Source of the DNA: a virus
Direction: 5' to 3' (one strand)
Length of the DNA stretch: 34,669 nucleotides
IMG/VR virus record: IMGVR_UViG_3300045988_094729
Of this stretch, positions 4,193 through 34,669 are shown piece by piece. The translations under genes and the position numbers were made by a program. The first letter of the stretch is position 1; every line of letters begins with the position of its first letter. The notes beneath the pieces were generated by a model, which worked only from the letters and a program-made list of their open reading frames with translations, was not told the DNA's origin and did no database searches.

Positions 4193-4561
4193 CTTTGAAT
4201 TTTTCGGGGTCTTTTAAAGCTTCAATAAAAGCTCGTTCTTTTTCATGTTCAGTCATCTTTCTACCTCCAAACACTTGTTCTGTTTTGATAATAACACGTT
4301 AGATTCAAAAAGAAAGGGGGAATTTGTATGAGAGTACCATAAGGGGGACTGCGCTCAACAATGTTGCACAAATCGTGCCTCGGATTCGCCTTTAACCGGC
4401 AGAGGGAGCGGGAGCCGCTCACCTCCGCCTCGGCCAGAACGGCGGAGAAGCTTCGTGGGAGCCGCCCCGGTCTGAATTAAGCATATCTCGTTCCCTTGGT
4501 TTTTTAAAGCCACAAATAGTATCCTTTCAGGGTAAAAATTGTTTAAATGGGGGGTAAAATA

Positions 4562-5074
4562 ATGGACTTTGAGCGATTACAGGAGCTTGTGCGGCAATCC
4601 GGTAAGACGCAGCAGGAGATCGCGGACGAATGCGGGCTGTCGCTCGCTACTGTCAAAAAGGTGCTTCACGGGCAAACATCAAATCCCGGCGTAGATACGC
4701 TGATAAGGATATTAAATACCATTGGCAAAAGTCTGCGGGATATAGATTCTGACTTTGTGAGAGTTCCGCAAGGATATAGTAAAGAGGATTTATACGAAGA
4801 ACTTATCGCCACTAACAAGGAGCGTATAAACGATCTGGTAGCCGAAGGGCGGCGTAAAAGCATTCAATTGCCCCTGTTGTCAGGTGTTTCCGTGTTATTG
4901 ATGGTGGTTTTAAGCGGAATATTTATCATAGATAGCAGATATCCGAGCATGGGGCTGATACGCCCCGAAACTAAGCATTTATCGACAATAGCAGGGGGTA
5001 TAATGCTGGTTTTCGCGATATTCGCAGGCTTTCTCATATACATCAGCATAAAAGAATGGAAAAGGTTAAAATAG
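4562..5074 (+). CDS. membrane-tethered XRE-family HTH protein (two C-terminal TM helices)
   Basis: LVRQSGKTQQEIADECGLSLATVKKVLHG is an HTH. TM segments: LLSGVSVLLMVVLSGIFII and IAGGIMLVFAIFAGFLIYISI. An alternative start exists at 4547. Confidence 0.7.
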   Translation: MDFERLQELVRQSGKTQQEIADECGLSLATVKKVLHGQTSNPGVDTLIRILNTIGKSLRDIDSDFVRVPQGYSKEDLYEELIATNKERINDLVAEGRRKSIQLPLLSGVSVLLMVVLSGIFIIDSRYPSMGLIRPETKHLSTIAGGIMLVFAIFAGFLIYISIKEWKRLK

Positions 5075-5087
5075 GAGGGTTTGGTCA

Positions 5088-5723
5088 ATGGGTATGATAC
5101 ATCAGTGCTCTCAGTGTGGGAAAAAGGGGTTGTTCTTGCCGCTCAACAACCTTGGGCACTGTGAGGAATGTATAAAAAAGAATAAGGCGGAACGAGACGA
5201 GCTCAAGGCAGAGCAGGATGAGCGCGAAGCGAAACAGATCAAATGCGAGGCGGCGCAGGACGTGCCGCTCATCGCCGAAACGGAAATTACAGACGACGAG
5301 GCAGAGAAAAAGGAGGAAGTTGAAAATATGGAAAATACCGGTGTTCGCAAACCGAATGTATCTGAAAAGGACTGGCTTACTACGCTGCTTTTATGTATAT
5401 TCCTGGGTGGCTTGGGTATACATCGGTTTTACGTCAACAAGCCGCTCACGGCTGTTCTTTGGTTGCTGACTGCCGGCTGCTTTGGTGTTGGTGTTATCAT
5501 AGATATATGCAGTATAGCCAGCGGCAGTTTTACGGACGGCGACGGGGCTGTGATCCTCTCAGAAAAGCAGCGGGACAGGGCACACGGCTCTGGTGTGCAG
5601 GACGCGCCGCCCGTTGATGCCGTCGAGCAGCTCCGCAAGCTGGGTGAATTGCGGGATAGTGGTATCCTGAGTGATGAGGAGTTTGCGGCGAAGAAGTCCG
5701 TATTGCTCGACAAGATAAAATAA
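5088..5723 (+). CDS. Zn-ribbon / TM2-domain / SHOCT-domain membrane protein
   Basis: CSQCGK...CEEC ribbon. LLLCIFLGGLGIHRFYVNKPLTAVLWLLTAGCFGVGVIIDI is TM2-like. AVEQLRKLGELRDSGILSDEEFAAKKSVLL is SHOCT-like. RBS: TAGGAGGG. Confidence 0.75.
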   Translation: MGMIHQCSQCGKKGLFLPLNNLGHCEECIKKNKAERDELKAEQDEREAKQIKCEAAQDVPLIAETEITDDEAEKKEEVENMENTGVRKPNVSEKDWLTTLLLCIFLGGLGIHRFYVNKPLTAVLWLLTAGCFGVGVIIDICSIASGSFTDGDGAVILSEKQRDRAHGSGVQDAPPVDAVEQLRKLGELRDSGILSDEEFAAKKSVLLDKIK

Positions 5724-5816: not shown

Positions 5817-6929
5817 ATGGCAAGGCAAAGCGACGGGAGGTATAGGGCTAAAGTAACCGTCGGCAAGGATATGAACGGCGGCAGCGTGATAAAATATGTA
5901 TCCGGGCGCACAAAGAAGGATTTGGAGGCCGCGAAGGAGGCGGTCAAGCAAGAGTTCATCACCGGGCGCACCGCGCAGAAGGACGCGCTTTTCGGCCCAT
6001 ACGCCATACAATGGTATAACGTCTACAAAAAGCCGAATATAAAGGAATCGGCGCAGAGCGGATATAAGACGGCGCTCAACAAGCACATATTGCCGGTGCT
6101 GGGAGATAAGCGGCTCACCGCAATATCCACTATGGATTTGCAGGAGCTGCTTAACTCCAAGGGCGATACGTGCGTAACCATAATCGAAAATGTACACCAT
6201 GTGTTAGAATCCGTCTTTAAGCGGGCATACTCCGAGGGGATAATCCAGCGGGACGTGACCGTGGGGCTGGTCAAGCCCACGAAAGAAAAGTCAAGCCGCC
6301 GGGCGCTGACGGAAGCGGAGGAAGTGGCGGCAAAGAAGCTGATGCAGGAGGAAAACGGCCTGCTGGTGGCATTGCTGTACTACACCGGCATGAGGCTCGG
6401 TGAAGCCCTCGGCCTGCAATGGGAATGTGTAGATTTCAGGAGGAAGGTCATACACGTCCGGCAGCAGGTCAATTTAAGGAAGGGCATGATAACCCCGCCC
6501 AAGACGAAGGAGAGCATACGGGATATACCCCTGCCGGACGAGTTGGCGGAAATGCTCGTGCGGGGATTCCCGCAGGCGTTTGTGTTCCCCGCCACCGATG
6601 GAACATACTACCGCAATTCCTCTTCAAATAGGCTATGGCGTTCGCTGATGGAGCGCATGGCAGAGTTGGAGCCGGACATTGAAACGAGAGAGGACGGCGC
6701 CTCTATCCTCACGCCGCACTACTTCCGGCACAATTACGCCTCCATACTCTATAATGCCGGCGTTGACGTGCTTTCCGCGCAGAAATTCCTCGGCCATGCC
6801 AACGTAAAAGTAACGCTTGAAATTTATTCACACCTTTCAAAGGAAAAAGAGGACGCAAGCGCGGGCGCGGTTATGGACGCTTTCAAAAAAAGGTTGCCGG
6901 AAAGTTGCCAGAATGAAACCACAAAATGA
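5817..6929 (+). CDS. int: tyrosine recombinase / phage integrase
   Basis: YYTGMRLGEALGL (catalytic Arg box), HYFRHNYAS (HxxR) and LGHANVKVTLEIYSH (catalytic Tyr). N-terminal SAM-like arm. Confidence 0.9.
   Translation: MARQSDGRYRAKVTVGKDMNGGSVIKYVSGRTKKDLEAAKEAVKQEFITGRTAQKDALFGPYAIQWYNVYKKPNIKESAQSGYKTALNKHILPVLGDKRLTAISTMDLQELLNSKGDTCVTIIENVHHVLESVFKRAYSEGIIQRDVTVGLVKPTKEKSSRRALTEAEEVAAKKLMQEENGLLVALLYYTGMRLGEALGLQWECVDFRRKVIHVRQQVNLRKGMITPPKTKESIRDIPLPDELAEMLVRGFPQAFVFPATDGTYYRNSSSNRLWRSLMERMAELEPDIETREDGASILTPHYFRHNYASILYNAGVDVLSAQKFLGHANVKVTLEIYSHLSKEKEDASAGAVMDAFKKRLPESCQNETTK
6892..6913 (+). repeat. two tandem GTTGCCRGAA motifs (within the integrase 3' end)
   Basis: ggttgccggaa agttgccagaa. 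The same motif occurs three times at 7112..7142. Confidence 0.7.
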
Positions 6930-13048: not shown

Positions 13049-15173
13049 GCGCTCACAACCTCCTGTACTGCCCACACGCCATTGTATACATCAAATTCAT
13101 AGGTCTTGTTTGCCTCTATTGCCGGGGCCGCGCCAATGAATGTGCCACTAAATGACACCGATACACTACTACCCGTAGTAAATGTGCCATGCGCCCAGCC
13201 GGATGCGGGAGGGGTGAATACATATGTACCAACAGGAGAAGATGCATTATATATAGTATTTGCCGTCAGTGCCGCGCCACTGGCGGGGAGGGAGGTTTCC
13301 TGTGTGGGTGGCGCGACATAATCAGTGCCGGGAATAGCAGCTTCAAAGAATGAGCCGTCACTTTTTTTATCATCGGATAATCAGTACGTTCGGACAAATC
13401 TACGGTCATTTGGACATACTGATTAAGCACGGCGAGAAGCGCAAGCGGCGATACATAATCACCTACGCTTGTGTCGGCATCCATGTCTTCAGCTGCCGCC
13501 ACTTTGCCGCCTGCACCCTTGAGCATGCCGTTAATGTTGGTCGCGGTGTCGGCAGTTATCTCGTTAGGGCCAGCGGGGCCCTGTTCGCCCTGTATGCCGG
13601 GGTCACCTTTCGCTCCCGTATCGCCCTGCGGGCCTTTGATGCTGGTACTTGCGGGGTTATCCAGTCCACCGTTATTGCTCCATGAGATTATGCCCTCGGC
13701 AGAGACGGCGGGGGTAAAATACGGCCCGGTGTCGCCCTTGGGGCCGGTGTCGCCTTTCACTCCCTGCTCTCCCTTTGCGCCCTGCTCACCAGTCGCGCCC
13801 TGTTCTCCCTTGGGGACGCCGAACTTAAAGGCAAATACCTTCGCGGTATCTGCGCCGGAAGCTGTCACCTCTACAGTAGCGGGGGTTCCCGCGTCAAGGG
13901 TGGTCGCCGTGGCGGTAGGTGTGCCGAATCCGGCGGCTTCGCCCGTGGGGCCTTGTTCTCCCTGCGGGCCTTTTATGTTGGCTTCGGGGGGATTAGCGAG
14001 GCCGCCGTTGTTTGTCCATGAGATAACTCCCTCGGCGGATACCGAGGGGGTAAAGTAGGGGCCGGTGTCGCCTTTAGCTCCGGCTGCGCCGGGGTCGCCC
14101 TTGGGGCCCGTATCGCCTTTAGGGCCAGTGGGGCCTTGCTCACCTTTTGCGCCCTGCAAGGGGCCGTTGTTTACCCACTTGGAATTTACGCCGTCCCAGA
14201 TATATATATCATACGGTTCGCCCGCGCCCACGCCGTAAGCGTCGCCAGCGGAGGGGTTAGATACTCCGGCTTGTAATGCCGAGAGAGAAGTGTAATAGCC
14301 CAACACGGCAAATCCTTCACCCGTATCGCCCTTGGCTCCCTGTGCGCCCTGTGGCCCCCTTATATTGACTGTGGCGGGGTTTTCCAGCCCGCCGTCATTA
14401 CTCCACGATAAATCGCCGTCAGCGGTCACAGAGGGCGTATAGTGCGCTCCTGCGGGGCCTCGTTCGCCCGTGGCTCCCGTGCCCCCTTTGGGGCCCGTTT
14501 CTCCCTTGTCTCCGGGGTCGCCTTTAGGCCCTTGGATACCCTGTTCACCTTTGGGGCCAGTGGGGCCCGTTTCTCCTGCGGCTCCCGTGTCGCCTTTATC
14601 GCCTTTCTTGCCTTCGGGGCCTTGGGGGCCGACGGGGCCGGGAGTGCCGTCCTGCCACGCCGAGCCGCTTGCGGTTCGAGTGAGTACCTGCCCCGGCGTT
14701 CCGCCCGCCGGCAATCCCCCGCCGCCGGATCCGCCGCCGCTCTGCGCCGCCTCGTTTATGGCCGCTACAAGGGTATTCTTGTCCGCGGTGGTCAACTCGT
14801 CCATGTCGCCGATTTTTGCAAGGAGTTGTTCGTACTGCGTCAGGGATATATCCGGCAGTTCGCCATCCGCAGCGCCGAATGGCAGTACGTCAAACCATAC
14901 CGGGCCCGCCGTCACGCGGCTGTCGGCCTTTATGCCGGATAGTTTCAGTTCCCAGCGTCCTGCAGTGAGGTTTATTCCCTGCGCTGCAGTGATTTCGCCA
15001 CTTGTGAGCTCCGCGGTTATGGTCTTATCTCCGCATACAAAATAGGCCGTGATAACGCGGCCGTTCCAGTCGGCGTCAAACGCAAATTTTGCAGTCAGAT
15101 AGTTTATGCTGTCCGCCACCACAAGTGGTGTACGCAGCATAAGCCTCTGCCCGCGTATAATGCCTGTAAGCAT
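13045..15173 (-). CDS. collagen-like tail fibre. The zero frame stops at 13266 (635 aa); the -1 frame after A AAA AAA (13368..13362) extends it to 13045 (709 aa).
   Basis: Long G-X-Y runs (GPQGPEGKKGDKGDTGAAGETGPTGPKGEQG...). A module Y(F)TPSVSAEGxISWxNNGGLxNP occurs three times. A startless 105-codon -1 ORF reads SDGSFFEAAIPGTDYVAPP...YEFDVYNGVWAVQEVVSA. Confidence 0.8.
13362..13368 (-). other. A AAA AAA heptamer in X XXY YYZ phase (candidate -1 shift site or A-tract indel)
   Basis: The zero frame reads ATG ATA AAA AAA GTG. The -1 frame opens only 4 codons upstream (TGA TTA TCC GAT GAT AAA AAA AGT). Confidence 0.6.
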
Positions 15174-15414: not shown

Positions 15415-16463
15415 ACGAACACCACCTTTTTTGCCTGATGCTCCATGAGGGCGCCAGGGCGTATCTCTATTTTCCAGTCGGTTTCCTCGTATACGCCCAC
15501 CAGATCCCCGTTATACAGCGCGATAACATCTCCTACGCCATGGGCCGGGTTTATGGCCGTGTAAAATTTGATTTTTTGCGTTGCAAACATGGATTTCACA
15601 GCAAGATTATCCGCGTATTTTTGCAGCGCCGTCTGGCTTGCTATATTATCCAGTTCAACCGGCGTCGCCAATATGCGCCGCCCCCTGCGTACCGTGGACA
15701 AAGCGGAGATCATGCTGTCATTTATGCCCGTTGCGGTCATGGGGTTGTCATAGTCAGGGTTAGATACGTTGACGATGAAAACGTTGGGGGCCTCATATAT
15801 GTCCATTTCCTCTGTGTATTCCGGGGCGATAATACTATATTCGTCGTCCCGATACTCCCGGTCTATGTTGGAGCTGGACGGAGCCTCGTACCTTTCAAGG
15901 CGGGCCACCCCATCAAAATCAAACCAAACATCCGAAAAGTTTATCTCGGACAGCAGTGCATTGATAATGGTGAGATATTCCGTTCCTATTTCCCAATCCT
16001 CACGGTCTGTGGCAAGAGTGTCCTCGCAATCGTCCATCCGTATGCGCGGTATTCCGGCGTCCCGGATAAGGCTCTGTATCGCAGTCATATATGGCGTCCC
16101 CGCCGCAATATAATACCGGGCCTCGGTTTTGGTTTGTTTGAGCTTCAGTGCGCGGTCGTATGCCTCTATGGTGTCCTCGTCCTTGCCGTATTTAGTGTGT
16201 TTGGTGGTCAGCGTGCCCACCATGTATATGCCGAGAGGATACTCTATGCCGTCCTTGATGTAATACGGTCTTATTTCGTCGTTTAGATAATCCACATTGT
16301 CGTTATGCTCGAACACGCCGTATATGGAGGTTTTTATTTCGCCATCGGCAGCCATGGTGACGGTGGGATAGCTATCTCCCACCGCCGCCAGATTGTGCTC
16401 TGTAACAGCCCCGTTGTGTATCACCTCAAAGCGGCTGGCTACTATACTCAGTGTATCAGTCAT
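15411..16463 (-). CDS. tail-associated (Tal-like) baseplate/hub protein
   Basis: 350 aa, positioned immediately after the Dit-like gene in a siphovirus tail module. Assignment rests on synteny only. Confidence 0.55.
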   Translation of the reverse strand: MTDTLSIVASRFEVIHNGAVTEHNLAAVGDSYPTVTMAADGEIKTSIYGVFEHNDNVDYLNDEIRPYYIKDGIEYPLGIYMVGTLTTKHTKYGKDEDTIEAYDRALKLKQTKTEARYYIAAGTPYMTAIQSLIRDAGIPRIRMDDCEDTLATDREDWEIGTEYLTIINALLSEINFSDVWFDFDGVARLERYEAPSSSNIDREYRDDEYSIIAPEYTEEMDIYEAPNVFIVNVSNPDYDNPMTATGINDSMISALSTVRRGRRILATPVELDNIASQTALQKYADNLAVKSMFATQKIKFYTAINPAHGVGDVIALYNGDLVGVYEETDWKIEIRPGALMEHQAKKVVFV

Positions 16464-18207
16464 ACTCTATTCTCTCCATATTGTCCGTCTGCTGTATGCT
16501 GCACGAAAATGCCCTGAAAAACTGGTCTACGCTCAGTTCGAAGCCCATCAGCGGGCCGGTGCACAGGCAGCCGTGCTGATCTCTGTATATCACGGTCTTG
16601 CCCAGCAGCCCCTCAAAAGCCGCTGCCTGCGCCGCATCGTTAAAAGCAGCGTTAAAACTGTATATTTTGGTTATTTGCTGCGAGGTCTCAGCCACGGGAT
16701 ACCGCCGCCCGGCGTAAAACTGATACGCTACATCCTGATACGCCGACACGCCCAGCGGGCTATTCTGCGCGGTGGAATATTCCAGCCGCAACCATTGCAT
16801 TTCACCCAGCGCCGCTATCTCCGGCGCGTCTACCGAAAGCGTGACCGTGACCTCATTGGACATGGAGTAACTGTCTCCAGCAACGCCGCGCACTTTATAT
16901 TTGTGCGTCCCTATGGCCATTTGGTCGGAGTATGTGTGTGCCGTGGTTTTTGCTATTGGTATGTCATCGCGGTAAATATAGTAAGTTTTGTGATCCGTTT
17001 CTGTCCATGCAAGGGCCGCTTTTTCGCCGCCCGCGGCAAAAAGTGTTATTGGCGCGCCCGGGGTGTTGGCAACGGTAAATTCAGCCGTTCCCCAATCGCT
17101 CCAAAGGCCATATTCGTTTTGTATCCGCACCGCGGCTATGTGCGCGCCATCATTCAGGTATTCTTTAACCTTATACTGCCCGTCAGTGCTGTAAGCGGTG
17201 CGGAGCACCGCATCGTCTACCTTCACCTGATAAGCAAGCTGCCCTTCGCCTGTCCACGTTATCACCGGCCTTGGGCTTGCCGTTGCGGCTACCGTCGGTG
17301 TGGATGGTTTGCCCTGAGCCGTAAACGATACTTCCGTGCTCCATGCGGATACGGCATCATAAATATTAGTGCAGCGCACACGCCAGTATACGGTTCCCGC
17401 AACTAAGGTGTTCGGCGGTATGTCGGCGTATGTGTTTGCCGTTTCTCCTGTTTGCAGCTCCGTCCATTCTGTATGTGACGTGTCTTTATATTGCAGTTCG
17501 TATTTTTTCTGTGGGATGCCGTTTTCGCTTTTGTACGTCCACTCGAATCTTACGGTCTCCCAGCTTCCGGCGTATGTGTTTTTTGGTTTTGTCGCCGTTG
17601 CGGTTATTTTATCGTTTGGGAACAGGCCCTTTATGTAGTAGCTGCCGTCGGGGTTTTGGTTATCTTCCAACTGTGTTGATTGAGGGATTACAAAAGCGGG
17701 GACAACACCATACGTTTTCGAGGGGTTGTTGTAGTTGTCGAAGCCGTCCGTGCTGACGTACCAGGCGTTGCCAGAAGATTTCAGCGAGGAAAGCCACCAG
17801 CGGGCAGCCAAGCCGTTGAGGGTTTTAATCCTCGTGTGTAATTGGAGGGTTTTGCCCTCCGCAACTCCGTTGTTATTGCCGAAGCCCGCCATGGTGTAGG
17901 TCATGGCAAACATCTTACGGGTTATATTGCCAGAGCCGGAAAGATTAAACGTTACGTCCATCATTTTTTCGCGCAGCGTTTGCGGGAAACTGTTGAATAT
18001 CGTATTTTTTATAAGATTATCCAGTGTTCCGTTCGGGTATAGGGCCGAGTTTCCAAACTCCGATTCTTCGTACACTCTTTTGTATACCAGCACCGCTCCG
18101 CCGGATACGAGGTTATCTTTATCCGCCACTTCGCATAGCCTGTTTTCTTCGGTGCCTACCGGGATGAGTATTGTTGCCCCCAGCGGCAAGTCTGCTAATG
18201 TCGCCAT
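16456..18207 (-). CDS. distal tail protein (Dit-like) with N-terminal DUF6273-like domain and Ig/FN3-like repeats
   Basis: 583 aa, directly after the tape measure. N-terminal ~200 aa are paralogous to ORF 1776..2396. The middle shows repeated beta-sandwich-like W..W...F.. patterns. Confidence 0.6.
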   Translation of the reverse strand: MATLADLPLGATILIPVGTEENRLCEVADKDNLVSGGAVLVYKRVYEESEFGNSALYPNGTLDNLIKNTIFNSFPQTLREKMMDVTFNLSGSGNITRKMFAMTYTMAGFGNNNGVAEGKTLQLHTRIKTLNGLAARWWLSSLKSSGNAWYVSTDGFDNYNNPSKTYGVVPAFVIPQSTQLEDNQNPDGSYYIKGLFPNDKITATATKPKNTYAGSWETVRFEWTYKSENGIPQKKYELQYKDTSHTEWTELQTGETANTYADIPPNTLVAGTVYWRVRCTNIYDAVSAWSTEVSFTAQGKPSTPTVAATASPRPVITWTGEGQLAYQVKVDDAVLRTAYSTDGQYKVKEYLNDGAHIAAVRIQNEYGLWSDWGTAEFTVANTPGAPITLFAAGGEKAALAWTETDHKTYYIYRDDIPIAKTTAHTYSDQMAIGTHKYKVRGVAGDSYSMSNEVTVTLSVDAPEIAALGEMQWLRLEYSTAQNSPLGVSAYQDVAYQFYAGRRYPVAETSQQITKIYSFNAAFNDAAQAAAFEGLLGKTVIYRDQHGCLCTGPLMGFELSVDQFFRAFSCSIQQTDNMERIEYD

Positions 18208-25934: not shown

Positions 25935-27488
25935 TCACACTATTCTCAGGCCGCGGTGCTCGTATACGCTGCGCTTGGGTTCCAGTTTTACCGCCGCCGC
26001 CATCGCGTCTATCAGGGCGCACATCGGGTCTATCCGCTCTATGCTCCTGTTTTTCATGGGTTTTATGTTCTCGTTGCCGTCCTGGGCTACTACTACATTG
26101 CCAAACGCCCAGCGCCCGCAGGGGTTCCTCTCGTGGGTCATTTCGCCCTCGCGTAGGAGTCGCTCAATTTCCTTCATTGCTGGGGACATGCCGCTCATGG
26201 TCTGGGGTATGGTGATTATCTTCTGCGCCGCAACCTCCTGCTGCATGAGGGGGCGCAGGGAATCTATGCGCCATTCGTCCGCTGCAATATATTTAACGTC
26301 ATAGTCAAGCATGAGCTTGTCCAGATAGTTGGCGATATAGGCGTAGTCCACACAGTTGCCGGGGGTCGCGTGCATATGCCCCGCCTGCACCCATTTGCTA
26401 AAAGGCACATGATCCCGGTGCTCCCGTTCCCGCATGTTTTCCTCGGGAATCCACGCGTCCACAAAAAAGCGCCACTCCGTTTCCTCCGGCGGCGGTGGGA
26501 AAAGGGCCGCCACGGCGGTCAGGTCGGTGGTGCTGGACAGATCTATGCCTACATAGCAGGGCCGCCCCAGCATATCGGATTTATGCCAGCCCCCTTCGGT
26601 ATCATCCCATAGGGTGATAGGCAGCCAGCCGGTGCGTTTAAGTGAGATCCATTGATTGAGCCGGAGCCACCGGAAGAGCTTCTCTGCCGCCGGGCTGTTT
26701 CGGGCCTTTATCGCCTCGCTGCGCACATTCTCAATTTTAATGGATACGCCCAGTGAGGGATTGGCTAAGTACCAATTTGTTTCATCGTATATGTCCGCGT
26801 CCTCAGGGACGGTATAGATTTTGGCGTAAAACGCCGGGTCTGTCAGTTCGCCGCTCAGCACCTTTGTTGCTATTTCGTGCTGTTCCCATCCCACACTTTT
26901 GCGGTCGGGGTCGTCGCCCGCGGTGGTGATGCACCATATGAGCTGCTCATTCCGTGCAGCACCCGTACCAAATGTCAGCACGTCCCACAAGTCCCGCTTG
27001 GGGTGGGCGTGTAGTTCATCTATGATGACCACGGAGGGGTTAAGGCCGTGTTTGGTCGCCGCCTCTGCCGACAGCACTTTAAAGCGGCTGTGTGTGCGGA
27101 GATTCAGCATTTCCTTCGTGCTGTCTTTGATTTTGATTATCTTTGACAATACTTCGCTTTGCTCCACCATGCTCTTTGCGGCGTTAAAAGCTATTGATGC
27201 CTGGTTCCTGTCTGCGGCGCCGCAGTATATCTCGCCGCCCGGTGCGTCCATGACCAGGTGATACAGGCTCAGCGCGGCGATAAGTTCGGTCTTGCCGTTT
27301 TTCTTGGCGATCTCCAAATATGCCATGTGGTACTGCCGCACGCCCTCGGCGGTCACGGTGCCGTATACGGAGTTTATGACCTCTATCTGCCATGGTAAAA
27401 GCACAAAGGGTTTGCCGTAAAAATCGCCGGTATGTTTAAGGGCCTGTACAAACTCGATAACTTCGAGGGTCTTGTTTGAGTTAACCAC
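25935..27488 (-). CDS. terL: terminase large subunit
   Basis: 517 aa. FVLLPWQ..., Walker-A-like AKKNGKTEL, VIIDELHAH (Walker B), and a C-terminal nuclease region. Confidence 0.9.
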   Translation of the reverse strand: MVNSNKTLEVIEFVQALKHTGDFYGKPFVLLPWQIEVINSVYGTVTAEGVRQYHMAYLEIAKKNGKTELIAALSLYHLVMDAPGGEIYCGAADRNQASIAFNAAKSMVEQSEVLSKIIKIKDSTKEMLNLRTHSRFKVLSAEAATKHGLNPSVVIIDELHAHPKRDLWDVLTFGTGAARNEQLIWCITTAGDDPDRKSVGWEQHEIATKVLSGELTDPAFYAKIYTVPEDADIYDETNWYLANPSLGVSIKIENVRSEAIKARNSPAAEKLFRWLRLNQWISLKRTGWLPITLWDDTEGGWHKSDMLGRPCYVGIDLSSTTDLTAVAALFPPPPEETEWRFFVDAWIPEENMREREHRDHVPFSKWVQAGHMHATPGNCVDYAYIANYLDKLMLDYDVKYIAADEWRIDSLRPLMQQEVAAQKIITIPQTMSGMSPAMKEIERLLREGEMTHERNPCGRWAFGNVVVAQDGNENIKPMKNRSIERIDPMCALIDAMAAAVKLEPKRSVYEHRGLRIV

Positions 27489-27975
27489 CGTACTTGCTCA
27501 GATATGCGGCCATGGGGTCGCTCTCTGCGGCTTTTTTCGCTGCTGCTACACCCATGCGAGCACGGCCCACCGGCGACAGGCACAGCTGCTCGGCGTATTT
27601 TATGATATTCTGCCCCTCCCGGCGCATGATGGTGATATATGGGTTTTCCGTTGGCTTGCCGTCCGCCGCCCGGTATATAAGCGGGCCGTTTTGGTATTCC
27701 GCCTCGGCTTTTTGGTATATCGCCACACTCTCGCAGTAGGCAGCGAGGGCGGATATGTCCAGATCGTTAATTATCGGGGTGTCGAGCTGGCGGTAGAGCT
27801 TTACTACCCTTTTCCATTCCTTCTTCGCCTCCGGGGACAGGCTTTTGGGTGGTTTTAATTTGTCGGAGCAGCCGGTAGGTTCGCCATTCTCCCGGTTTTC
27901 CATCGTGTCTTTGGTATGCCGGTTTTTGCCGTTATCGACGAGCTTTAGCGGCCTCGGCTTTCTTCCTGTCGGCAT
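27481..27975 (-). CDS. terS: terminase small subunit, P27 family
   Basis: MPTGRKPRP...LSPEAKKEWKRVV...ISALAAYCESVAIYQKAEAE...ENPYITIMRREGQNIIKYAEQLCLSPVGRARM. RBS AGGAGGAGCCT-ATG. Confidence 0.85.
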   Translation of the reverse strand: MPTGRKPRPLKLVDNGKNRHTKDTMENRENGEPTGCSDKLKPPKSLSPEAKKEWKRVVKLYRQLDTPIINDLDISALAAYCESVAIYQKAEAEYQNGPLIYRAADGKPTENPYITIMRREGQNIIKYAEQLCLSPVGRARMGVAAAKKAAESDPMAAYLSKYGG

Positions 27976-27989
27976 AGGCTCCTCCTTTC

Positions 27990-28403
27990 TCAAATTCTGT
28001 ATTTGCCTATGATTTTTTTGTGTCCTTTGACGCTGTTGCAATGTATGCAGGCGGGCTGGTGATTGGCGGTATCCCAAAAGCGCGGGTCGCCCGGCCCGTC
28101 AGGCGGGTCTATGTGATCCACGCACCGCGCCACCATAGTGCAGCCATCATCCAGCCGCAGGGCGCAGAGTTGATGTTCCGGGGCCGACAAATACCAGCGG
28201 GAGTATTTGCTCCATCGGGCATCATATCCGCGCTGCCGGGAGCTGCCCCGCCGCTCGTCCTGGGCGTGTATCTGCTCCTGCTGCCGCAGTTCGCCCGCCG
28301 TCCGGTGCTCATCGCAGTATCGTCCGGCGGTCAGCGCATTACATCCAGGGTACTGGCAAAAATGTAGGGCTCGGCTTGCCATATTGCCGCTCATCTCCCT
28401 CAA
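27990..28403 (-). CDS. HNH endonuclease (terminase-associated)
   Basis: CQYPGC...YCDEH zinc finger and VDHIDPP...NHQPACIHCNSVKG. Immediately upstream of terS. The exact start is uncertain (TTG 28403 or downstream ATGs). Confidence 0.8.
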   Translation of the reverse strand: MREMSGNMASRALHFCQYPGCNALTAGRYCDEHRTAGELRQQEQIHAQDERRGSSRQRGYDARWSKYSRWYLSAPEHQLCALRLDDGCTMVARCVDHIDPPDGPGDPRFWDTANHQPACIHCNSVKGHKKIIGKYRI

Positions 28404-28622: not shown

Positions 28623-29120
28623 TTACGCTGCTATTCTGCCTATCAGTCTGTCTACCCCCTGTCTCTCAAGGGTCTTCGCCCAATCAATCGAGACGTGCAT
28701 TTGCTGCGCTATCCGCTCCCAATATCCCCCTTTTGCCACTCCGTATTTAACGTACCGCAGTCTTATTGCCTCATATTCCAGCGGCGGCAAGCACATCACT
28801 TCAAATTCTATCATTCCCACCCAATGGTCGAGATTTTGTAATTCGTCTTCCAGCCGTTTTTTCTTCTTTCGCAGTCTTTTTAATTCCCGCGAAGCTTTTA
28901 TCACCGTGGCCGGAGTGCTGTCCGGCAGCTCGGTACCGTGCGGCAAGCCCGTAATCTGCTGCGGGTGAAGGTCGTATTGCGCGTCGATCTCCTCGTCAAC
29001 GCTAATTAACAACCGCTCTTTTTCCGTCCTCGTGCGCTCTGCATTACCCCAATACATCAGCAGTCGCCGCACGGCTGCCCGCTCATCTCGCCTTTCCCGC
29101 GTTGCTTTTTTCGGATTCAA
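28623..29120 (-). CDS. putative late-gene transcriptional activator (sigma-70 region-4-like, ArpU/RinA-type)
   Basis: TTG start after AAAGGAGGCGAAAAA. C-terminal LPPLEYEAIRLRYVKYG...WERIAQQMHVSIDWAKTLERQGVDRL looks like region 4. Positioned just before the packaging genes. Confidence 0.45.
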   Translation of the reverse strand: MNPKKATRERRDERAAVRRLLMYWGNAERTRTEKERLLISVDEEIDAQYDLHPQQITGLPHGTELPDSTPATVIKASRELKRLRKKKKRLEDELQNLDHWVGMIEFEVMCLPPLEYEAIRLRYVKYGVAKGGYWERIAQQMHVSIDWAKTLERQGVDRLIGRIAA

Positions 29121-29438
29121 TTTTTCGCCTCCTTTTTGGATTAAAAACCGTCGTTTTTGATGTAATTTTACAAATCTTTTCGATGACCAATTTGCCGCCG
29201 CCGTTTATTTGTAGTTTTGTTGTTTTGGGGCGCCCCATTGCCGTTCATTTTCGAAGCTTCTCAAAAATCGAAAAATTTTTCTTCCGATGGGCCGCCCCGG
29301 TACCACGGAGGGTTGATTTAGCTTTTTGATGCCCCCCTCCCCTCTATTTTGGCCTGTTTCCTCCGGCACAGGTTTGCTGTGTTCCCCCACCGGCGGAGTT
29401 GCCCCCGAACCCTCCAACGCTTTTCCCTATCATTCATT

Positions 29439-29783
29439 TCAACACTTCTTTCCGTGCTTATATGGCCGCCCACGATTATAGGTCATCTTTTGTCGCACAA
29501 TCTCGTCCGCGTCCAGTCCCTCATGACTAAACCAATCCAGTATGCGGATAAGACAATCCGCCATCTCGGTGGCTATGCCCTCGGGCTTGCCGTCCTCGTT
29601 TGCCCATACCATAGGGCGCCCGGCACGGTACTCCTCTACCGCCTCGGACAGCTCGCTATGGCAAAGGGCGACAATCTCCAGCAGGTTGCGAGGCTCGTCC
29701 CACCAGCCGTGAGTAACGGCGTTTTCGTGTATTTCCTTCGCCAACTTGTACAGCGGCTCTTCGTTGTTGTGGATCGTTATCAT
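29439..29783 (-). CDS. MazG-like all-alpha NTP pyrophosphohydrolase (copy 2)
   Basis: CHSELSEAVEEYRAG...KPEGIATEMADCLIRILDW...KMTYNRGRPYKHGKK. RBS GGGAGGGAGAAAA-ATG. Confidence 0.75.
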   Translation of the reverse strand: MITIHNNEEPLYKLAKEIHENAVTHGWWDEPRNLLEIVALCHSELSEAVEEYRAGRPMVWANEDGKPEGIATEMADCLIRILDWFSHEGLDADEIVRQKMTYNRGRPYKHGKKC

Positions 29784-30050
29784 TTTTCTCCCTCCCATAT
29801 CAGCGGCTTCCCCTCTGCGTCTACCATTATGCATATGCCGCCTTGGTATACTTTTAGGTATTGTATCCCCGTGAGGTTATCGACATATATCGTATACGAT
29901 GCACCCGTTTCCAGCGTTCGCAGTCTGTAAGTACCAGCCTCAGCCTTGTTGCACCCGCATGACGGGCAATGAAACACGCCTATTCGCCAAATTATGCACA
30001 ACACGCCGGTTCTGCCGCAGTCTTCGCATGGATACGTTATTCTTTTCACG
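29780..30050 (-). CDS. Zn-ribbon protein with DUF6440-like C-terminus
   Basis: GTG start overlaps the upstream stop (GTGA) after GGAAGGAGG. Contains CEDCGR...CPSCGC, then YVDNLTGIQYLKVYQGGICIMVDAEGKP. Confidence 0.55.
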
Positions 30051-30342
30051 CTTCCTCCTTCCTTTCGCCGCGACCACAAAAATGCTGTTTTTGTACGCTT
30101 ACCGGAAATACATCATTATCCACGATACAAAGTTCATATTCTGCGTTATCCGCTGTCGCCGAGATACAGTACCGGCAATCTATACATCTCACCACTTCCA
30201 CTACATCGGCGGCGGGTTCTTTGTCGATAAATGCCATCCAATCACAATCGCTCGGTTCGCACGGTTCTTCACTGCATACCTCGTTGCAATGCCCACATAC
30301 AAACTGCTTTGCTCTGTTTTTAGTTATATATTCTTTTGTCAT
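30046..30342 (-). CDS. Cys-rich small protein (14 Cys; contains PAADVVEVVRCIDCRYC)
   Basis: 98-aa ORF with ATGA overlap to the upstream gene. Confidence 0.6.
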   Translation of the reverse strand: MTKEYITKNRAKQFVCGHCNEVCSEEPCEPSDCDWMAFIDKEPAADVVEVVRCIDCRYCISATADNAEYELCIVDNDVFPVSVQKQHFCGRGERKEEA

Positions 30343-30536
30343 ACTTCTTCCAATGCCTTTTCAGCTTCTTCACGGACTGCAACCATGTCAACATACTCTT
30401 GCGGGTTATGCGCTTTTACATGTGGGTCGCTAAATTTTTTAGCACTCTCAAGCAGTGCTTCTATAATTATGTCTTTATTTGTATTGCAGTCGCACCTGGC
30501 AAAGCAATAATATTTGTCGCCGATTTTTACAGGCAT
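30339..30536 (-). CDS. hypothetical small protein
   Basis: 65-aa ORF with TAATG overlap to the radical-SAM gene. Confidence 0.55.
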   Translation of the reverse strand: MPVKIGDKYYCFARCDCNTNKDIIIEALLESAKKFSDPHVKAHNPQEYVDMVAVREEAEKALEEV

Positions 30537-31246
30537 TATTCTTCCTCCTTCGGCGGTTTGACCATTTCTACCCGTAAGCTCTCTTTTATGTAGTAATCAA
30601 TGCCAAGTTGCTTGCATAGTTGTTCGGCTTCTTCCCCAAACTGTTTCCAGTTAATATTTGACGAATAGTAATTCAATTTCCCAATTTTAACCTTGTCAAA
30701 TATGTCATAACAGTTCTCGATACATTCCAAAACCCGATCTGCGTCCGTTACAGGCTCAAAAGAACACCATGTTTTTATTCCCCAGTCATGCGCTTCTTTC
30801 ACATCTATAAGCCTGTCGCTTGGCATATATAAACCGCCATACATACCATCATAGGTAATACCGTACCAATCGTTTTCATCCAGCAAATCAAAGTCACGGC
30901 TCCCATCGCCCTTTGTAAGTATCTGAACATGGTTCCCACTTGCCTTGATAGCCTTTATAATCTGCCGTGTCGCCGTGGTATCATGTCCTGTGGGGTATGG
31001 GTCACAGGTGAAACACAGGTGTATCAATTTGCCCGCGATTCCTTCCCGCTCTAACTGTTTAATAGTTGCCTCCACAATTCCATCACGAGGCTTTATGTTA
31101 GTGTGAAACTGTTCCCGATCTTTCCTTAACACTGACGGGGCAAAGCAGTAATAACATCTGTGAGGACATCCCGTGTAAATGTTGATAGCATAATCGCCGT
31201 ACTCTTTTGCTTTTCCTTTAGGTATATAAATTGGCTTCATCTTCAT
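30536..31246 (-). CDS. radical SAM enzyme (short, no SPASM extension)
   Basis: INIYTGCPHRCYYCFAP carries CxxxCxxC. The G-C-x-H-x-C-x-Y-C context resembles the COG1533/SplB-like group (from memory). 236 aa, low GC. Confidence 0.8.
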   Translation of the reverse strand: MKMKPIYIPKGKAKEYGDYAINIYTGCPHRCYYCFAPSVLRKDREQFHTNIKPRDGIVEATIKQLEREGIAGKLIHLCFTCDPYPTGHDTTATRQIIKAIKASGNHVQILTKGDGSRDFDLLDENDWYGITYDGMYGGLYMPSDRLIDVKEAHDWGIKTWCSFEPVTDADRVLECIENCYDIFDKVKIGKLNYYSSNINWKQFGEEAEQLCKQLGIDYYIKESLRVEMVKPPKEEE

Positions 31247-31416
31247 ACCTCCTTTGGCGGTTCGGCCACCTCCACTACATCGGCGGCGGGGATATCCTTC
31301 AAGTCGATTTCCTTGATGTACCTGTGCAATACAACTCCGCTCAATTCAGGGTCGTAGTGCTTTACTTCAATAACCTTTTCCAGCGCCTTTTCTCGCTCTA
31401 TGTACTCTTTAGCCAT
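31243..31416 (-). CDS. 57-aa hypothetical protein (ends ...IPAADVVEVAEPPKEV)
   Basis: RBS TAGGAGGTACTGACA-ATG. Its stop overlaps the radical-SAM ATG (ATGA). Below the ORF-track cutoff. Confidence 0.55.
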   Translation of the reverse strand: MAKEYIEREKALEKVIEVKHYDPELSGVVLHRYIKEIDLKDIPAADVVEVAEPPKEV

Positions 31417-31428
31417 TGTCAGTACCTC

Positions 31429-31890
31429 CTATTTCTGCCAGATCACAACCATGCTTGGGAACGGCGCTGGCATTGGCCGCCCATCGCGATCATGTATGGG
31501 CTTGCCCTTAATCTCGAATTTGAGCCGCCCACGGATGAAGCGAATTTCGGCTTTGCCGAGTATGTACTCGTGAAAGCTGGATCTGTCTGTCCGGGCGGGT
31601 ATCAGCAGCACAACCGTTGTGTTGGGTTTCTGTGCCTCGCGGTAGCATTTCTCCGTCCATTGTCCTGTTTCCCTGTTACCATAGGGCGGATTGCAAAACA
31701 CTGTTTCGCCCTGCCAATTTTGCAGTAAACCGTTATCCTTTTTTGTGAAATACTTCTCGCATTTGTGGTTGGCGTCGCTGGCCGCCGCGTCCAGTGTGAA
31801 ATTAGACTCGGCGTTTAGCTCATCAAACAGGCTTTGCGGCGTTTCCCAGTAGTCCTTGTCGCTCGAAAACATAGTGGTGAGATTAGTCAT
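31429..31890 (-). CDS. phage N6-adenine DNA methyltransferase (Dam-type, NPPY)
   Basis: DYWETPQSLFDELN...FTLDAAAS...ETVFCNPPYG. RBS CAGGAGGCAAGGAAA-ATG. Confidence 0.85.
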   Translation of the reverse strand: MTNLTTMFSSDKDYWETPQSLFDELNAESNFTLDAAASDANHKCEKYFTKKDNGLLQNWQGETVFCNPPYGNRETGQWTEKCYREAQKPNTTVVLLIPARTDRSSFHEYILGKAEIRFIRGRLKFEIKGKPIHDRDGRPMPAPFPSMVVIWQK

Positions 31891-32166
31891 TTTCCTTGCC
31901 TCCTGTTTCTGCCGCCTCCATGCGCTCATTGAGCCGCTCAATCTTCTTGGTAATCCACTCTGCCATCTGCCCGCCTACGTTGAATATGCAACAGAGCTGC
32001 CACAGCATTATCTGTACGTCAGCCATTTCCTCTGCAAGATGGTCAGAGTTCGGCTTGCCACGCAAAGCTTTGGTCAGTTTTTTTGTAGCTCTGCACATTC
32101 CTCGATGGCGACTATGGTCTGGATGGGTTCGCCGTATTTCTCGATGGCTCTGCGCAGAATTTTCAT
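31883..32166 (-). CDS. MazG-like NTP pyrophosphohydrolase (copy 1), interrupted by a -1 frame change at CAA AAA AAC (A7 = 32084..32078)
   Basis: The 5' frame reads MKILRRAIEKYGEPIQTIVAIEECAELQKN* and the 3' frame reads ...KKLTKALRGKPNSDHLAEEMADVQIMLWQL.... Joined, they give a typical EE..EL...EE.AD MazG core. An alternative GTG start at 32184 overlaps the upstream TGA. Confidence 0.65.
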
Positions 32167-32180
32167 TGTGTTTTTACTGT

Positions 32181-32625
32181 TCACAGTTCAGTGTCTCCTT
32201 TCAAATACTCCTCAATCACCGCCGCCGCGCAGGGCCAGCCGTAGCAGACCGCGCAATAGTAGCCCTCGGCTATAGCGCCGCTCATAAACTCGTTTTGGTT
32301 TGGGGTCGGATTATTAGCGCCAGTTTTGAGCTCGACGTATATGCCATGGTAGCCGCCCCGGGCGGCAGGGATAAATACATCGGGTACGCCGGAATGTACC
32401 CCCTGCCATATCAGCCGCACAGCGGTGCGCTTATCGCGTAAGCCGCCGTTGGGTATGTGGTGGTAGAGCCGCAGTGCACGGATACTGCGTCCGCATCATC
32501 CGTGCCCAGTTGGTCAGGGCGGTCTGGTGCTCGTCCTCTTTGCCTATTACCGGCTGGGCAGGTCGCCATACGGGTATACCGGCCCGGTTGGGGGTCATGG
32601 TGTAATCTTTCAGCAATTGTTTTTT
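32181..32625 (-). pseudogene. VRR-NUC nuclease with a +1 frame break near 32478
   Basis: The 5' frame reads ...EDEHQTALTNWARMMRTQYP. The 3' frame reads ALRLYHHIPNGGLRDKRTAVRLIWQGVHSGVPDVFIPAARGGYHGIYVELK. Skipping one nt in TAT CCG t GCA CTG restores a canonical VRR-NUC. TTG start at 32625 follows AAAGGAGGT. Confidence 0.7.
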
Positions 32626-32699: not shown

Positions 32700-33425
32700 T
32701 TAACACCGCCGCTTGGGCGGGATTTTGACATACTTGAAATAGGCAAAGCCGAACTCTGTCGCGCCGCTCTCGACGAGGATATAGTCTTTCGGAGAGCGCG
32801 GCGGCTTGGCCGGCGTGTAGTTGCGTTTTATGGGTTTTGTCTGCTCCCTGCCGCAGGGGGCAAGGTTACGGGTCGCCATGTAGTGGTGCCCGCCCTGCTC
32901 CGGCGTCCAGTGATTAAACAAGTAATTGGCTAATCCCGTATAATCGGGGCCGTGGTCTATGCCGTCATAGTGGACGTGGGCCCGGAGGTGCTCGCAGCGA
33001 TTGACGCTGCCCAGCGTCCATTGTTTGCGTATGGCCTCCTCCGGTATGCCGTCCGTCAGCATGTGGGCGTGTATGCGGTGGGTGTTTTTGCCTCGGCCCA
33101 TGTAGATAACGATTTTTGCCTCCGGGTAGGCGTAGAGCAGCCGGCGCCGGAAGTTGACGCAGAGGCGGCGGAAGTCCTTAAAATCGTGTACCTCGTGCTC
33201 GTCGTCCTGGGTCAATGTGCTGTATATCGAGGCCGGGGTAAAGTTTTCGTTGACCAGCCGGGTATGGGCCCGGCGGGCTACCTCAGAGTTAAACCGCGCC
33301 CTTTCCTCGTCCGTTTTAAATCTCGGCTTCCGCGGGCGGTAGGGTTTTTGCGTCCTGTCGCCCACGGAGTATATGATCCGCTCCAGCACCACGCCGGAAT
33401 ATATATCACGCCGTACCCGCTGCAT
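32700..33425 (-). CDS. HUH-type rolling-circle replication initiator (Rep)
   Basis: STLTQDDE (motif 1-like), THRIHAHML (HUH), DYTGLANYLFNH (Tyr motif). RBS AAAAGGAGGCCGCC-ATG. Confidence 0.6.
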   Translation of the reverse strand: MQRVRRDIYSGVVLERIIYSVGDRTQKPYRPRKPRFKTDEERARFNSEVARRAHTRLVNENFTPASIYSTLTQDDEHEVHDFKDFRRLCVNFRRRLLYAYPEAKIVIYMGRGKNTHRIHAHMLTDGIPEEAIRKQWTLGSVNRCEHLRAHVHYDGIDHGPDYTGLANYLFNHWTPEQGGHHYMATRNLAPCGREQTKPIKRNYTPAKPPRSPKDYILVESGATEFGFAYFKYVKIPPKRRC

Positions 33426-33863: not shown

Positions 33864-34382
33864 TCAGTCCTCCCCCAAATCCCCGATTAGATCAACGCCT
33901 ATTTTCGCCAGCTCGTCGGCGGAGTATTGGTGCTGAATGTGGTTCATAAAATAACTCCCAGCGATTTTTTTGACGTTGGTTTTCGCCGCCGCAAGGTAGC
34001 CCTCAAATTTCTCGCTGTTAAATAGGGTGCAGGGGCGCATATACTCCTGCATGCTTGTCCCCTTCCACGTTGCCCAGCGGCTGTCTATTACCCGGCGGCA
34101 GTCCTCCGGCGTATGGTCCTCCGCAATGCGGGCGTTGATATAGCTGCGGTTTTTCGGCGTTTTTTGATATTTCGTCCCGGCAACAGTGTTGAGGTAGTCT
34201 ATTACCGCGTCGGCGGCGGTCGTGTCAGTGATCGCATTGCGGGCGGTAACCTCTCCGGTCTCCCGGTTTATCGTTACTATCAGGGCGGGCCTGCCGTTGA
34301 TGCTGACAGCGGCCCGGCCTTTTGTGTCCATGTGCTCCCCTATGGCGCGGATTAGGGCGCTGTATATCTCCTTTTCCCCCAT
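33864..34382 (-). CDS. DnaD-like replisome organiser (phage conserved C-terminal domain)
   Basis: AVIDYLNTVAGTKYQKTPKNRSYINARIAEDHTPEDCRRVIDSRWATWKGTSMQEYMRPCTLFNSEKFEGYL matches the phage replisome-organiser C-terminal pattern. ATG at 34382 follows AAGGGAG. The track start at 34409 is a GTG inside the upstream gene. Confidence 0.75.
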   Translation of the reverse strand: MGEKEIYSALIRAIGEHMDTKGRAAVSINGRPALIVTINRETGEVTARNAITDTTAADAVIDYLNTVAGTKYQKTPKNRSYINARIAEDHTPEDCRRVIDSRWATWKGTSMQEYMRPCTLFNSEKFEGYLAAAKTNVKKIAGSYFMNHIQHQYSADELAKIGVDLIGDLGED

Positions 34383-34384
34383 AG

Positions 34385-34669
34385 TTAAATAACTCCCTTC
34401 ATAAAACACGCCCAGAACGTTTGTGATTTTTTCCCGCTATGGTGCCCAAACAGCGGCTTCTGGCCAATAGCTGCCCACACCTTATCCGCCGGAATATCGC
34501 GTTCGCTCCATTTAAAAATAAGGGTTCCGTCGGGTTTCAGAACCCTCATGCACTCTGCAAAGCCGTCATGCAGCATTTGTGGCCAGTTGTCGTCAAGCTT
34601 CCCGTATTTTTTAACCAGCCACGATGTTTCTTTTGCCCCTGTGAGGTGTGGCGGGTCGAAAACAACAAG
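34385..34669 (-). CDS. DNA methyltransferase, C-terminal part (continuation of 265..1 across the circular junction)
   Basis: ...VVFDPPHLTGAKETSWLVKKYGKLDDNWPQMLHDGFAECMRVLKPDGTLIFKW... runs in frame across the 55-nt repeat. Confidence 0.75.
   Translation of the reverse strand, partial: LVVFDPPHLTGAKETSWLVKKYGKLDDNWPQMLHDGFAECMRVLKPDGTLIFKWSERDIPADKVWAAIGQKPLFGHHSGKKSQTFWACFMKGVI
34615..34669. repeat. second copy of the 55-nt terminal repeat
   Basis: Identical to 1..55. Confidence 0.95.

Follow-up and report, generated by a model that had tools for sequence, protein, structure and literature searches.

A mobile single-gene cassette encodes a compact radical SAM protein, a putative DNA-directed enzyme, in a phage of gut Clostridia

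Gene organization of the block

The window analysed here is a 34,669-nucleotide stretch of viral DNA (IMG/VR record IMGVR_UViG_3300045988_094729). The gene in question encodes a radical S-adenosylmethionine (radical SAM) protein, and lies in a block of seven back-to-back genes at positions 29439–31890, all on the minus strand. The coordinates of the block were refined, and the start codons were picked by ribosome-binding sites. Read along the minus strand, the first gene (31429–31890) encodes a Dam-type N6-adenine DNA methyltransferase of 153 residues with an ATG start and a CNPPYG motif (PF05869, E 2.5e-30). It is followed by orf57 (31243–31416), which encodes a small protein with a PAADVVEV motif, and by the radical SAM gene (30536–31246), whose 236-residue product carries TGCPHRCYYCFAP and matches PF04055. 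Next come orf65 (30339–30536), encoding a small protein, and orf98 (30046–30342), encoding a Cys-rich protein in which the PAADVVEV motif is followed by CxxCxxC. The Zn-ribbon/DUF6440 gene (29780–30049) has a GTG start and encodes 89 residues. The last gene (29439–29783) encodes a MazG-like nucleoside triphosphate pyrophosphohydrolase of 114 residues (phrog_3301 pyrophosphatase, E 2.1e-35). An earlier annotation made from the DNA letters alone (the original prediction) had named the Dam methyltransferase, the radical SAM protein, the Zn-ribbon protein and the MazG-like protein, and these identities hold. It had counted 14 Cys residues in the 98-residue protein; the actual count is 10.

The chain of seven consecutive genes described in the original prediction is confirmed in the sequence. 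The methyltransferase gene and orf57 are separated by a 12-nt gap containing GGAGG, and the five junctions after orf57 read, in order, ATGA, TAATG, ATGA, GTGA and ATGA. The start of the methyltransferase gene overlaps the stop of the MazG-like gene upstream of it (ATGACTAA). According to a rough tiling of the minus-strand genes of the window, 15 of the 50 junctions overlap, and six of these 15 are consecutive in the block. Overlap coupling is thus denser in the block than elsewhere, yet it is a general habit of this phage genome. The G+C content is 42.3% for the radical SAM gene, 40.4% for orf65 and 45.1% for orf98, compared with 52% for the methyltransferase gene, 54.5% for the MazG-like gene and 52.8% for the window. 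The radical SAM segment is therefore AT-rich, as had been noticed.

The dense coupling suggests one explanation, in which the seven genes form a single pathway and the methyltransferase, the radical SAM protein, the Cys-rich proteins and the MazG-like protein act together on DNA or on the nucleotide pool. In its favour are the five consecutive stop/start overlaps, which are denser than in the rest of the window, and the presence of three genes whose products act on nucleic acids or nucleotides. The comparison with related loci described below makes a single pathway very improbable.

Mosaic inheritance of the radical SAM gene

The comparison set consisted of 48 IMG/VR loci and 80 GTDB loci encoding relatives of the radical SAM protein; single loci are given L numbers. 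Among the GTDB species genomes, 392 stretches encode a relative, and the best 80 loci were kept, mostly from metagenome-assembled genomes (MAGs) of Oscillospiraceae and other Clostridia. According to blastn, the homology at 98–99% nucleotide identity to the window stops at the borders of the radical SAM gene in at least 10 related phage contigs. In eight loci (L010, L011, L013–L015 and L017–L019), this identity spans only positions 31263 (31257 in L015) to 30538. The boundary at 31263 is common to L016 and L020–L022 as well. These breakpoints define a mobile single-gene cassette (30538–31263, minus strand) composed of the radical SAM open reading frame (ORF) and 17 nt with its ribosome-binding site. 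Past the cassette, blastn similarity returns only at the DUF6440 part of the Zn-ribbon gene (79–95%). The low G+C content and the breakpoints located exactly at the gene borders support horizontal acquisition of a single gene. Recent acquisition of the AT-rich segment, as originally suspected, is thus borne out as far as horizontal transfer is concerned.

The genes beside the cassette were compared by tblastn. Next to radical SAM proteins 96–100% identical to that of the window, orf57, orf65, orf98, the methyltransferase and the MazG-like protein are present, absent or rearranged, and next to proteins 60–78% identical the neighbour proteins of the window are almost never detectable. For example, only some of the relatives have orf65 (at 100% identity), and in L022 both orf65 and orf98 lie upstream of the radical SAM gene; orf98 is missing beside the near-identical radical SAM genes in L010–L020. 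Gene-cluster strings also show that the immediate neighbours vary widely. The 128 loci give 114 distinct neighbourhoods of ±3 genes, and the commonest neighbour family occurs in only 14. An adjacency rule for DNA methyltransferases was tried and rejected, as the adjoining families differ (PF05869, PF02086, PF00145 and PF01555) and only 42 of 132 loci encode a protein with a methyltransferase motif within 5 kb.

These results bear directly on the single-pathway explanation. The linkage is lost even at 96–100% identity of the radical SAM protein, with many contigs having no orf65, orf98, methyltransferase or MazG-like gene; the gene order is changed in L022; and no neighbour family exceeds 14 of the 114 neighbourhoods. 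In addition, one gene of the block is a chimera formed by deletion, and the MazG-like gene next to the block carries a frameshift. A common pathway is largely refuted by the comparative data. The original prediction regarded the block as a co-functioning unit and had named a lack of conserved linkage beforehand as refuting this, and the co-occurrence survey shows no conserved linkage. The seven genes are a patchwork of independently swapped accessory genes and not a pathway, and the radical SAM gene is a self-contained single-gene cassette with mosaic inheritance of its own. As the linkage is not conserved, co-translation says nothing on the function of the radical SAM protein.

Sequence family and predicted structure of the radical SAM protein

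The radical SAM protein passes PF04055 with 35.9 bits against a cut-off of 29.5 bits. The matches to curated NCBIfam models are all partial and far below the cut-offs: PA0069 (NF033668) with 38.9 bits against 360, matched at model positions 58–170 of 348; radical SAM mobile pair protein B (TIGR04470) with 37.3 bits against 410, over residues 16–182; Rv2578c (NF038135) with 35.5 bits against 430; spore photoproduct lyase (SPL; TIGR04070) with 14.3 bits against 400; and NrdG2 with 12 bits against 131. The protein is assigned to phrog_13321, annotated as of unknown function. In source databases, some family members are labelled 'DNA repair photolyase' (the COG1533 label). The family includes 4105 clusters at 90% identity with E<=1e-3. 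At 50% identity and E<=1e-30 it is reduced to 245 representatives, nearly all of 225–270 residues, and the family profile search gives 5958 matches at E<=1e-10. Judging from these similarities, the family appears to be a large group of compact enzymes of about 230–250 residues, borne by phages and mobile elements, that belongs to the branch of SPL, PA0069/Rv2578c and Pseudomonas phage M6 gp53.

The AlphaFold2 model of the protein, calculated with 88 sequences, has a predicted local distance difference test score (pLDDT) of 95.3 and a predicted template modelling score (pTM) of 0.91, and its strands and helices alternate. The protein is predicted to adopt a partial (β/α)6 TIM-barrel core. In a Foldseek search with this model, the top PDB match is SPL (4fhf, E 6.7e-6, TMq 0.64). 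SuiB, SkfB, BioB and viperin appear at ranks 2–10, and all ten matches with E<=1e-3 are radical SAM enzymes. Among the viral predicted structures of BFVD, nothing close was found, the best TMq being 0.66. The profile searches and the structure prediction are in line with the short SplB-like type originally proposed.

The cluster cysteines C27-x3-C31-x2-C34 are invariant in the 73 and 88 aligned relatives, and they are the only invariant Cys residues; C78 and C81 are often replaced by Ser or Thr. Neither a second cluster nor an RlmN/Cfr-type cysteine pair is present in the protein. Further invariant residues are Y7, E15, Y16, N22, Y33, R54, F79, D82, P83 and Y84 in the first part of the protein, and K112, R145, W160, S162, E164, W200 and K221 in the remainder. 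As a set of active-site residues, these are invariant in the gut clade and in the environmental clade alike.

PA0069 and Rv2578c are the best-scoring curated models, with the strand motifs TDPYQP, TK and EPxAxxPxxR...G(I)...(EP/AP)(V/I) in common. The 348-position PA0069 model is matched only at about 58–170 by the window protein or 61–241 by its relatives, and its N- and C-terminal parts are missing from both. To our knowledge, the PA0069 and Rv2578c families are themselves uncharacterized. Mobile pair protein B resembles the window protein in being carried by mobile elements; protein A (TIGR04471), its defining partner, is absent. Several relatives show weak matches to PF07505 (DUF5131), the family of TcmP-partnered three-Cys-motif proteins (PADLOC candidate PDC-M41), but no such match was detected in the window protein. 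Neither the window nor any of the loci of its clade has a TcmP gene. The SPL, DUF5131 and MJ0683-like families are grouped in one megacluster at RadicalSAM.org, and SOS-linked SplB-like enzymes have been described by Aravind. Literature searches on PA0069, DUF5131, TcmP, COG1533/SplB-like proteins, phage radical SAM proteins and ParB with radical SAM proteins found nothing on this compact family. With the PHROG annotation and the low NCBIfam scores, this agrees with the earlier statement that no function has been characterized for it. PADLOC models match neither the window protein nor its relative P0301.

A fusion protein of 1303 residues (P0240) combines a compact radical SAM domain (residues about 5–247) with a Prim-Pol domain (PF09250, residues 276–413). 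The fusion is another link of the family to DNA metabolism. As a clue to a specific function, P0240 and a second fusion, P0209, were set aside as not informative; in P0209, the region outside the radical SAM domain matches neither Pfam models nor the ParB and methyltransferase-like proteins.

The original prediction had considered an NrdG-type activase as a possible identity. In this explanation, the protein is an NrdG-type glycyl-radical activase, or QueE of the 7-deazaguanine pathway, with partners encoded elsewhere. The size of the protein is similar and faint NrdG matches of 12 bits exist, but the cut-offs of the NrdG models are 126–131 bits, no QueE model was matched at E<0.1, and the QueE structure 5tgs is found by Foldseek at E 0.012 with a TMq of only 0.49. 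No glycyl-radical partner (NrdD or PFL) is encoded by the large ORFs of the window, which specify tail, capsid, portal, terminase and lysin proteins. The genes queC, queD and dpdA were seen in no scanned neighbourhood. We regard this identity as extremely improbable.

Comparison with spore photoproduct lyase and phage M6 gp53

SPL (PDB 4FHD/4FHF) shares the radical SAM partial TIM-barrel core with the compact family. The cluster motifs CxHGCxYCYAP of the family and CMGHCHYCYLQ of SPL are alike, and a TxD(P) strand and an (I/V)(L/T)TK strand are in common. The window protein has 236 residues compared with about 340 in SPL, and about 100 C-terminal residues are absent. According to the profile alignment, the position of the H-donor Cys140 of SPL corresponds to F79 of the family, which is Phe in 73 of 73 and 88 of 88 sequences. 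Cys140 is the catalytic H-donor cysteine of Geobacillus thermodenitrificans SPL.

If it were a true SPL, the protein would act on phage or prophage DNA that has passed through host spores, and would repair its 5-thyminyl-5,6-dihydrothymine. Both the sequence and the fold find SPL as their best PDB match, relatives are named 'DNA repair photolyase' in source databases, and many Clostridia hosts form spores. Against this identity, the TIGR04070 score is 14.3 bits where 400 are needed, the PF20903 (SPL) score is 13.3 bits where 27 are needed, the C-terminal part is missing, and the catalytic Cys140 aligns with a family-invariant Phe. Relatives are also found in phages of Bacteroides, Parabacteroides and Alistipes, which do not sporulate, and in environmental phages; unlike that of SPL, the host range of the family includes non-spore-formers. 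Thus, a true SPL is improbable, and the alignments indicate that the protein is not an SPL orthologue.

The characterized phage relative is gp53 of Pseudomonas phage M6, an SPL-like radical SAM enzyme of the 5-(2-aminoethyl)-2'-deoxyuridine (5-NedU) thymidine hypermodification pathway, which isomerizes N-alpha-glycinyl-thymidine to the C-alpha form on DNA (PMC8989533). In 2021, SPL and M6 gp53 were the only radical SAM enzymes known to act on DNA (PMC8989533). The original prediction stated that no SPL-like radical SAM enzyme belongs to a phage DNA-modification pathway; it overlooked gp53, which the family profile matches. The gp53 sequence was taken from the M6 genome. The profile gives 29.7 bits over 157 positions of the gp53 core with hmmsearch, and a probability of 96% (E 2.8e-9, 158 columns) with hhalign. 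The SFT-DPF(L)PI(E) segment and the EP/NPV strand are aligned between gp53 and the family, and gp53 hits the same three NCBIfam models as the window protein with similar scores (PA0069, 39.5 bits). BLAST-level similarity is absent. With 481 residues, gp53 extends beyond the window protein by about 120 N-terminal and about 180 C-terminal residues.

For its reaction, gp53 needs 5-hydroxymethyl-2'-deoxyuridine (5-hmdU) and an adjacent kinase (5-HMUDK), aGPT-Pplase and a pyridoxal phosphate (PLP) decarboxylase (PMC8989533). None of the kinase, aGPT-Pplase and the PLP decarboxylase was found among the window ORFs scanned, which did not include every small ORF, or among the recurrent neighbour clusters. 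As these partner genes were not seen, the window protein appears to be a relative of gp53 and not an orthologue. SPL and gp53, both of the characterized relatives identified, perform radical chemistry at the thymine C5 substituent in DNA.

A three-gene module in distant relatives

The clade at 35–45% identity served as the seed of another search of IMG/VR, after which 87 loci were examined. A methyltransferase-like protein of about 200 residues is encoded in 47 of the 87 loci, usually by a gene touching the radical SAM gene. A ParB_N protein of about 190 residues is found in 30 of the 87, and a longer family of about 410 residues, detected by the ParB_N profile, in 12 of the 87. The module is usually located right beside the terminase genes, in either orientation; examples are L139 (2661–4747), L001 (3846–5786) and loci among L142–L221, all from IMG/VR. 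The fold of the partner of about 200 residues is that of a class-I SAM methyltransferase; its motif I reads VLDxFxGxG, and its motif IV, DLDAYGxP, resembles that of Trm1. The same order of ParB, methyltransferase-like and radical SAM genes is present in the isolated Dulem virus 36, and an integrative element carries the methyltransferase-like, ParB and radical SAM genes with an integrase. No description of the three-gene module was found in the literature searched. The hidden Markov model (HMM) of the methyltransferase-like partner matches nothing in any locus of the window's clade, and the gut clade thus appears to be the solo form of the enzyme.

For one cellular relative (P0301, 38% identity), the gene immediately before it encodes TcmP, which scores 211.8 bits with TIGR04474 (cut-off 53), as seen in L056 (6164–7729) and L057 (491–2056). 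This TcmP matches the PADLOC candidate defence gene PDC-M41A. Since the radical SAM protein matches no PADLOC model, the locus may represent a variant form of this candidate defence. TcmP was also compared with the methyltransferase-like partner, and homology of the two is not supported (hhalign probability 0.9%).

Possible function

On balance, we lean towards a putative post-replicative radical chemistry on phage DNA, either modification or repair. DNA chemistry is the best guess because of the homology to SPL and gp53 and because of the ParB and methyltransferase-like partners in distant relatives. The direction towards DNA or nucleotide chemistry given in the original prediction is retained on these grounds; the co-translation from which it was drawn is not.

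In the favoured mechanism, a flavodoxin or ferredoxin of the anaerobic host would reduce the [4Fe-4S] cluster, and the reduced cluster would cleave SAM to give the 5'-deoxyadenosyl radical. Once the phage DNA has been replicated, the radical would take an H atom from a base in the double strand, probably at the C5 substituent of a pyrimidine. Either the DNA would gain a modification protecting it against host nucleases, or a lesion would be reversed. In the clade of the window the enzyme would act without a dedicated phage partner, and in the relatives from environmental phages it would act with the ParB_N protein and the small class-I methyltransferase-like protein.

Several observations weigh against the DNA-directed function. 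The identity to SPL (340 residues) and gp53 (481 residues) is only 13–22%, and both carry N- and C-terminal regions that are absent from the window protein. RNA, peptides and small molecules are substrates of radical SAM enzymes whose core is similar. No 5-hmdU pathway gene was found among the window ORFs scanned, and the HMMs of the methyltransferase-like and ParB_N partners match no window ORF of >=40 residues. According to a crude motif count, a protein with a methyltransferase motif is encoded within 5 kb of the radical SAM gene in only 42 of the 132 loci, about a third of those in the clade of the window.

A rival explanation is a substrate other than DNA: RNA or tRNA, a nucleotide-derived small molecule (a viperin-like reaction or the removal of a defence signal), or a peptide under maturation. 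In motif IV, the methyltransferase-like partner of the relatives is closest to Trm1, the tRNA N2,N2-dimethylguanosine (m2,2G) methyltransferase. SuiB, SkfB and viperin are among the Foldseek matches with TMq values of 0.54–0.63, and conflict systems in a general sense are suggested by the TcmP gene beside the cellular relative. However, the relatives at the sequence level are the SPL/PA0069/gp53 group and not the viperin or SPASM groups, and there are no Cys residues for an auxiliary cluster, only the three cluster cysteines being invariant. The ParB_N partners are DNA-binding proteins, and no conserved neighbour resembling a precursor peptide was present among the neighbourhoods compared. A non-DNA substrate is accordingly judged unlikely.

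A more specific form of the DNA-directed function can be put forward tentatively. The compact radical SAM protein may supply the catalysis in a so far undescribed system by which phages mark their DNA; in environmental phages, this system would include the ParB_N and methyltransferase-like partners. In prophages of gut Clostridia the protein would have become a solo 'orphan' enzyme whose gene is exchanged freely, like orphan methyltransferases. The radical-derived base mark might shield the DNA from restriction or from a TcmP-type defence. We consider this system possible but doubtful.

Other genes in the block

The methyltransferase gives 95.1 bits with TIGR01712 (cut-off 97.05) and matches an orphan methyltransferase model of PADLOC (E 1.3e-51). 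The orf57 protein has no Pfam or PHROG match and clusters with relatives of the orf98 protein. The orf57 and orf98 proteins, which share the PAADVVEV motif, belong to a multi-copy family whose members are small and often rich in Cys; 25 of 52 related loci have it, and 2–3 copies per locus are common. The orf65 protein has no family match in Pfam, PHROG or NCBIfam. For the orf98 protein, ferredoxin-subunit matches are at chance level only (E about 0.01). A role as a ferredoxin-type electron donor for the radical SAM protein was rejected in view of these chance-level matches and the lack of linkage to the radical SAM gene.

The Zn-ribbon/DUF6440 gene matches PF20037 with E 3.5e-10 at residues 60–94 of the 99-aa ORF. 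In L006–L009 the Zn-ribbon and DUF6440 genes are separate, with an 81-aa gene between them. The 89-residue protein of the window is a deletion chimera, in which the N-terminal part of a 61-residue Zn-ribbon protein is joined to the mature part of the DUF6440 lipoprotein. The junction is located at about 29945–29959, at the shared TGCGGGTGC, and the signal peptide of the DUF6440 lipoprotein is lost.

The MazG-like protein encoded at 29439–29783 has no Pfam match, and its PDB matches, MazZ and dCTPase, are weak (E 0.13–0.9). The best of these is MazZ of the phage 2-aminoadenine pathway (E 0.13, not significant). No PurZ gene was seen in the window. The second MazG-like gene (31883–32184, minus strand; phrog_2245, E 4.5e-15), just upstream of the methyltransferase gene, is broken. 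A 1-nt deletion in the A7 run at 32078–32084 splits it into ORFs of 36 and 71 residues; the site reads CAAAAAAACTG in the window and CAAAAAGAACTG in L009, which has an intact 100-aa ORF. The split gene is either a pseudogene or the result of a homopolymer sequencing error. In addition, the sequence A_AAA_AAC at this site is a slippery heptamer, and its register is the one that a -1 shift requires.

Phage setting

The window is from a temperate siphophage or prophage, and the hosts are gut Clostridia of the Oscillospiraceae type. The closest cellular copies of the radical SAM protein (60–76% identity) are from MAGs of Oscillospiraceae and other Clostridia from guts and rumens. The window carries an integrase gene (5817–6929) and genes for capsid, portal, tape-measure, collagen-repeat fibre and NlpC/P60 lysin proteins. 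Against GenBank phages, positions 29300–32100 gave no match by megablast, and the radical SAM protein gave only nine weak records by tblastn.

The TerL, TerS and HNH genes are located at 25935–28403, and a sigma-like late regulator at 28623–29120. Upstream of the block are a VRR-NUC gene and two replication-initiation genes (32700–33425 and 33864–34409). The block had been called early; its position between the replication genes and the late regulator and terminase genes indicates the middle. The block is therefore an accessory-gene slot, with the replication module on one side and the late/packaging module on the other; the genes that fill it are small, follow one another without gaps of note and are exchanged independently.

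A second DNA methyltransferase gene (34385–34669, minus strand), upstream of the replication-initiation genes, is cut by the window end. Its product contains VVFDPPH...RVLKPDG and matches phrog_954 (E 3.7e-21). The phage therefore carries at least two methyltransferases. A membrane protein with TM2 and SHOCT domains (5088–5723) and an HTH_3 regulator (4547–5074), both on the plus strand, adjoin the integrase; the pair is possibly a superinfection-exclusion or lysogeny module. A tail-fibre-like protein of 635 residues with collagen triple-helix repeats is encoded at 13266–15173 on the minus strand, and DUF6273 is present in two separate proteins (16456–18207 and 1776–2396).

Biological implications

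The compact radical SAM family would be a third group in the SPL/gp53 branch, stripped down and very abundant, with thousands of sequences. It is spread over prophages of gut Clostridia and environmental phages, where its gene either moves alone or is part of a module of three genes beside packaging genes. If its substrate is not DNA, the protein is one more uncharacterized phage radical SAM gene product in a mosaic accessory region. If the enzyme modifies DNA, it would represent a new chemical class among the anti-restriction marks of phages, and a minimal scaffold for studying DNA-directed radical chemistry. The protein is thus a candidate for a third kind of DNA-directed radical SAM enzyme.

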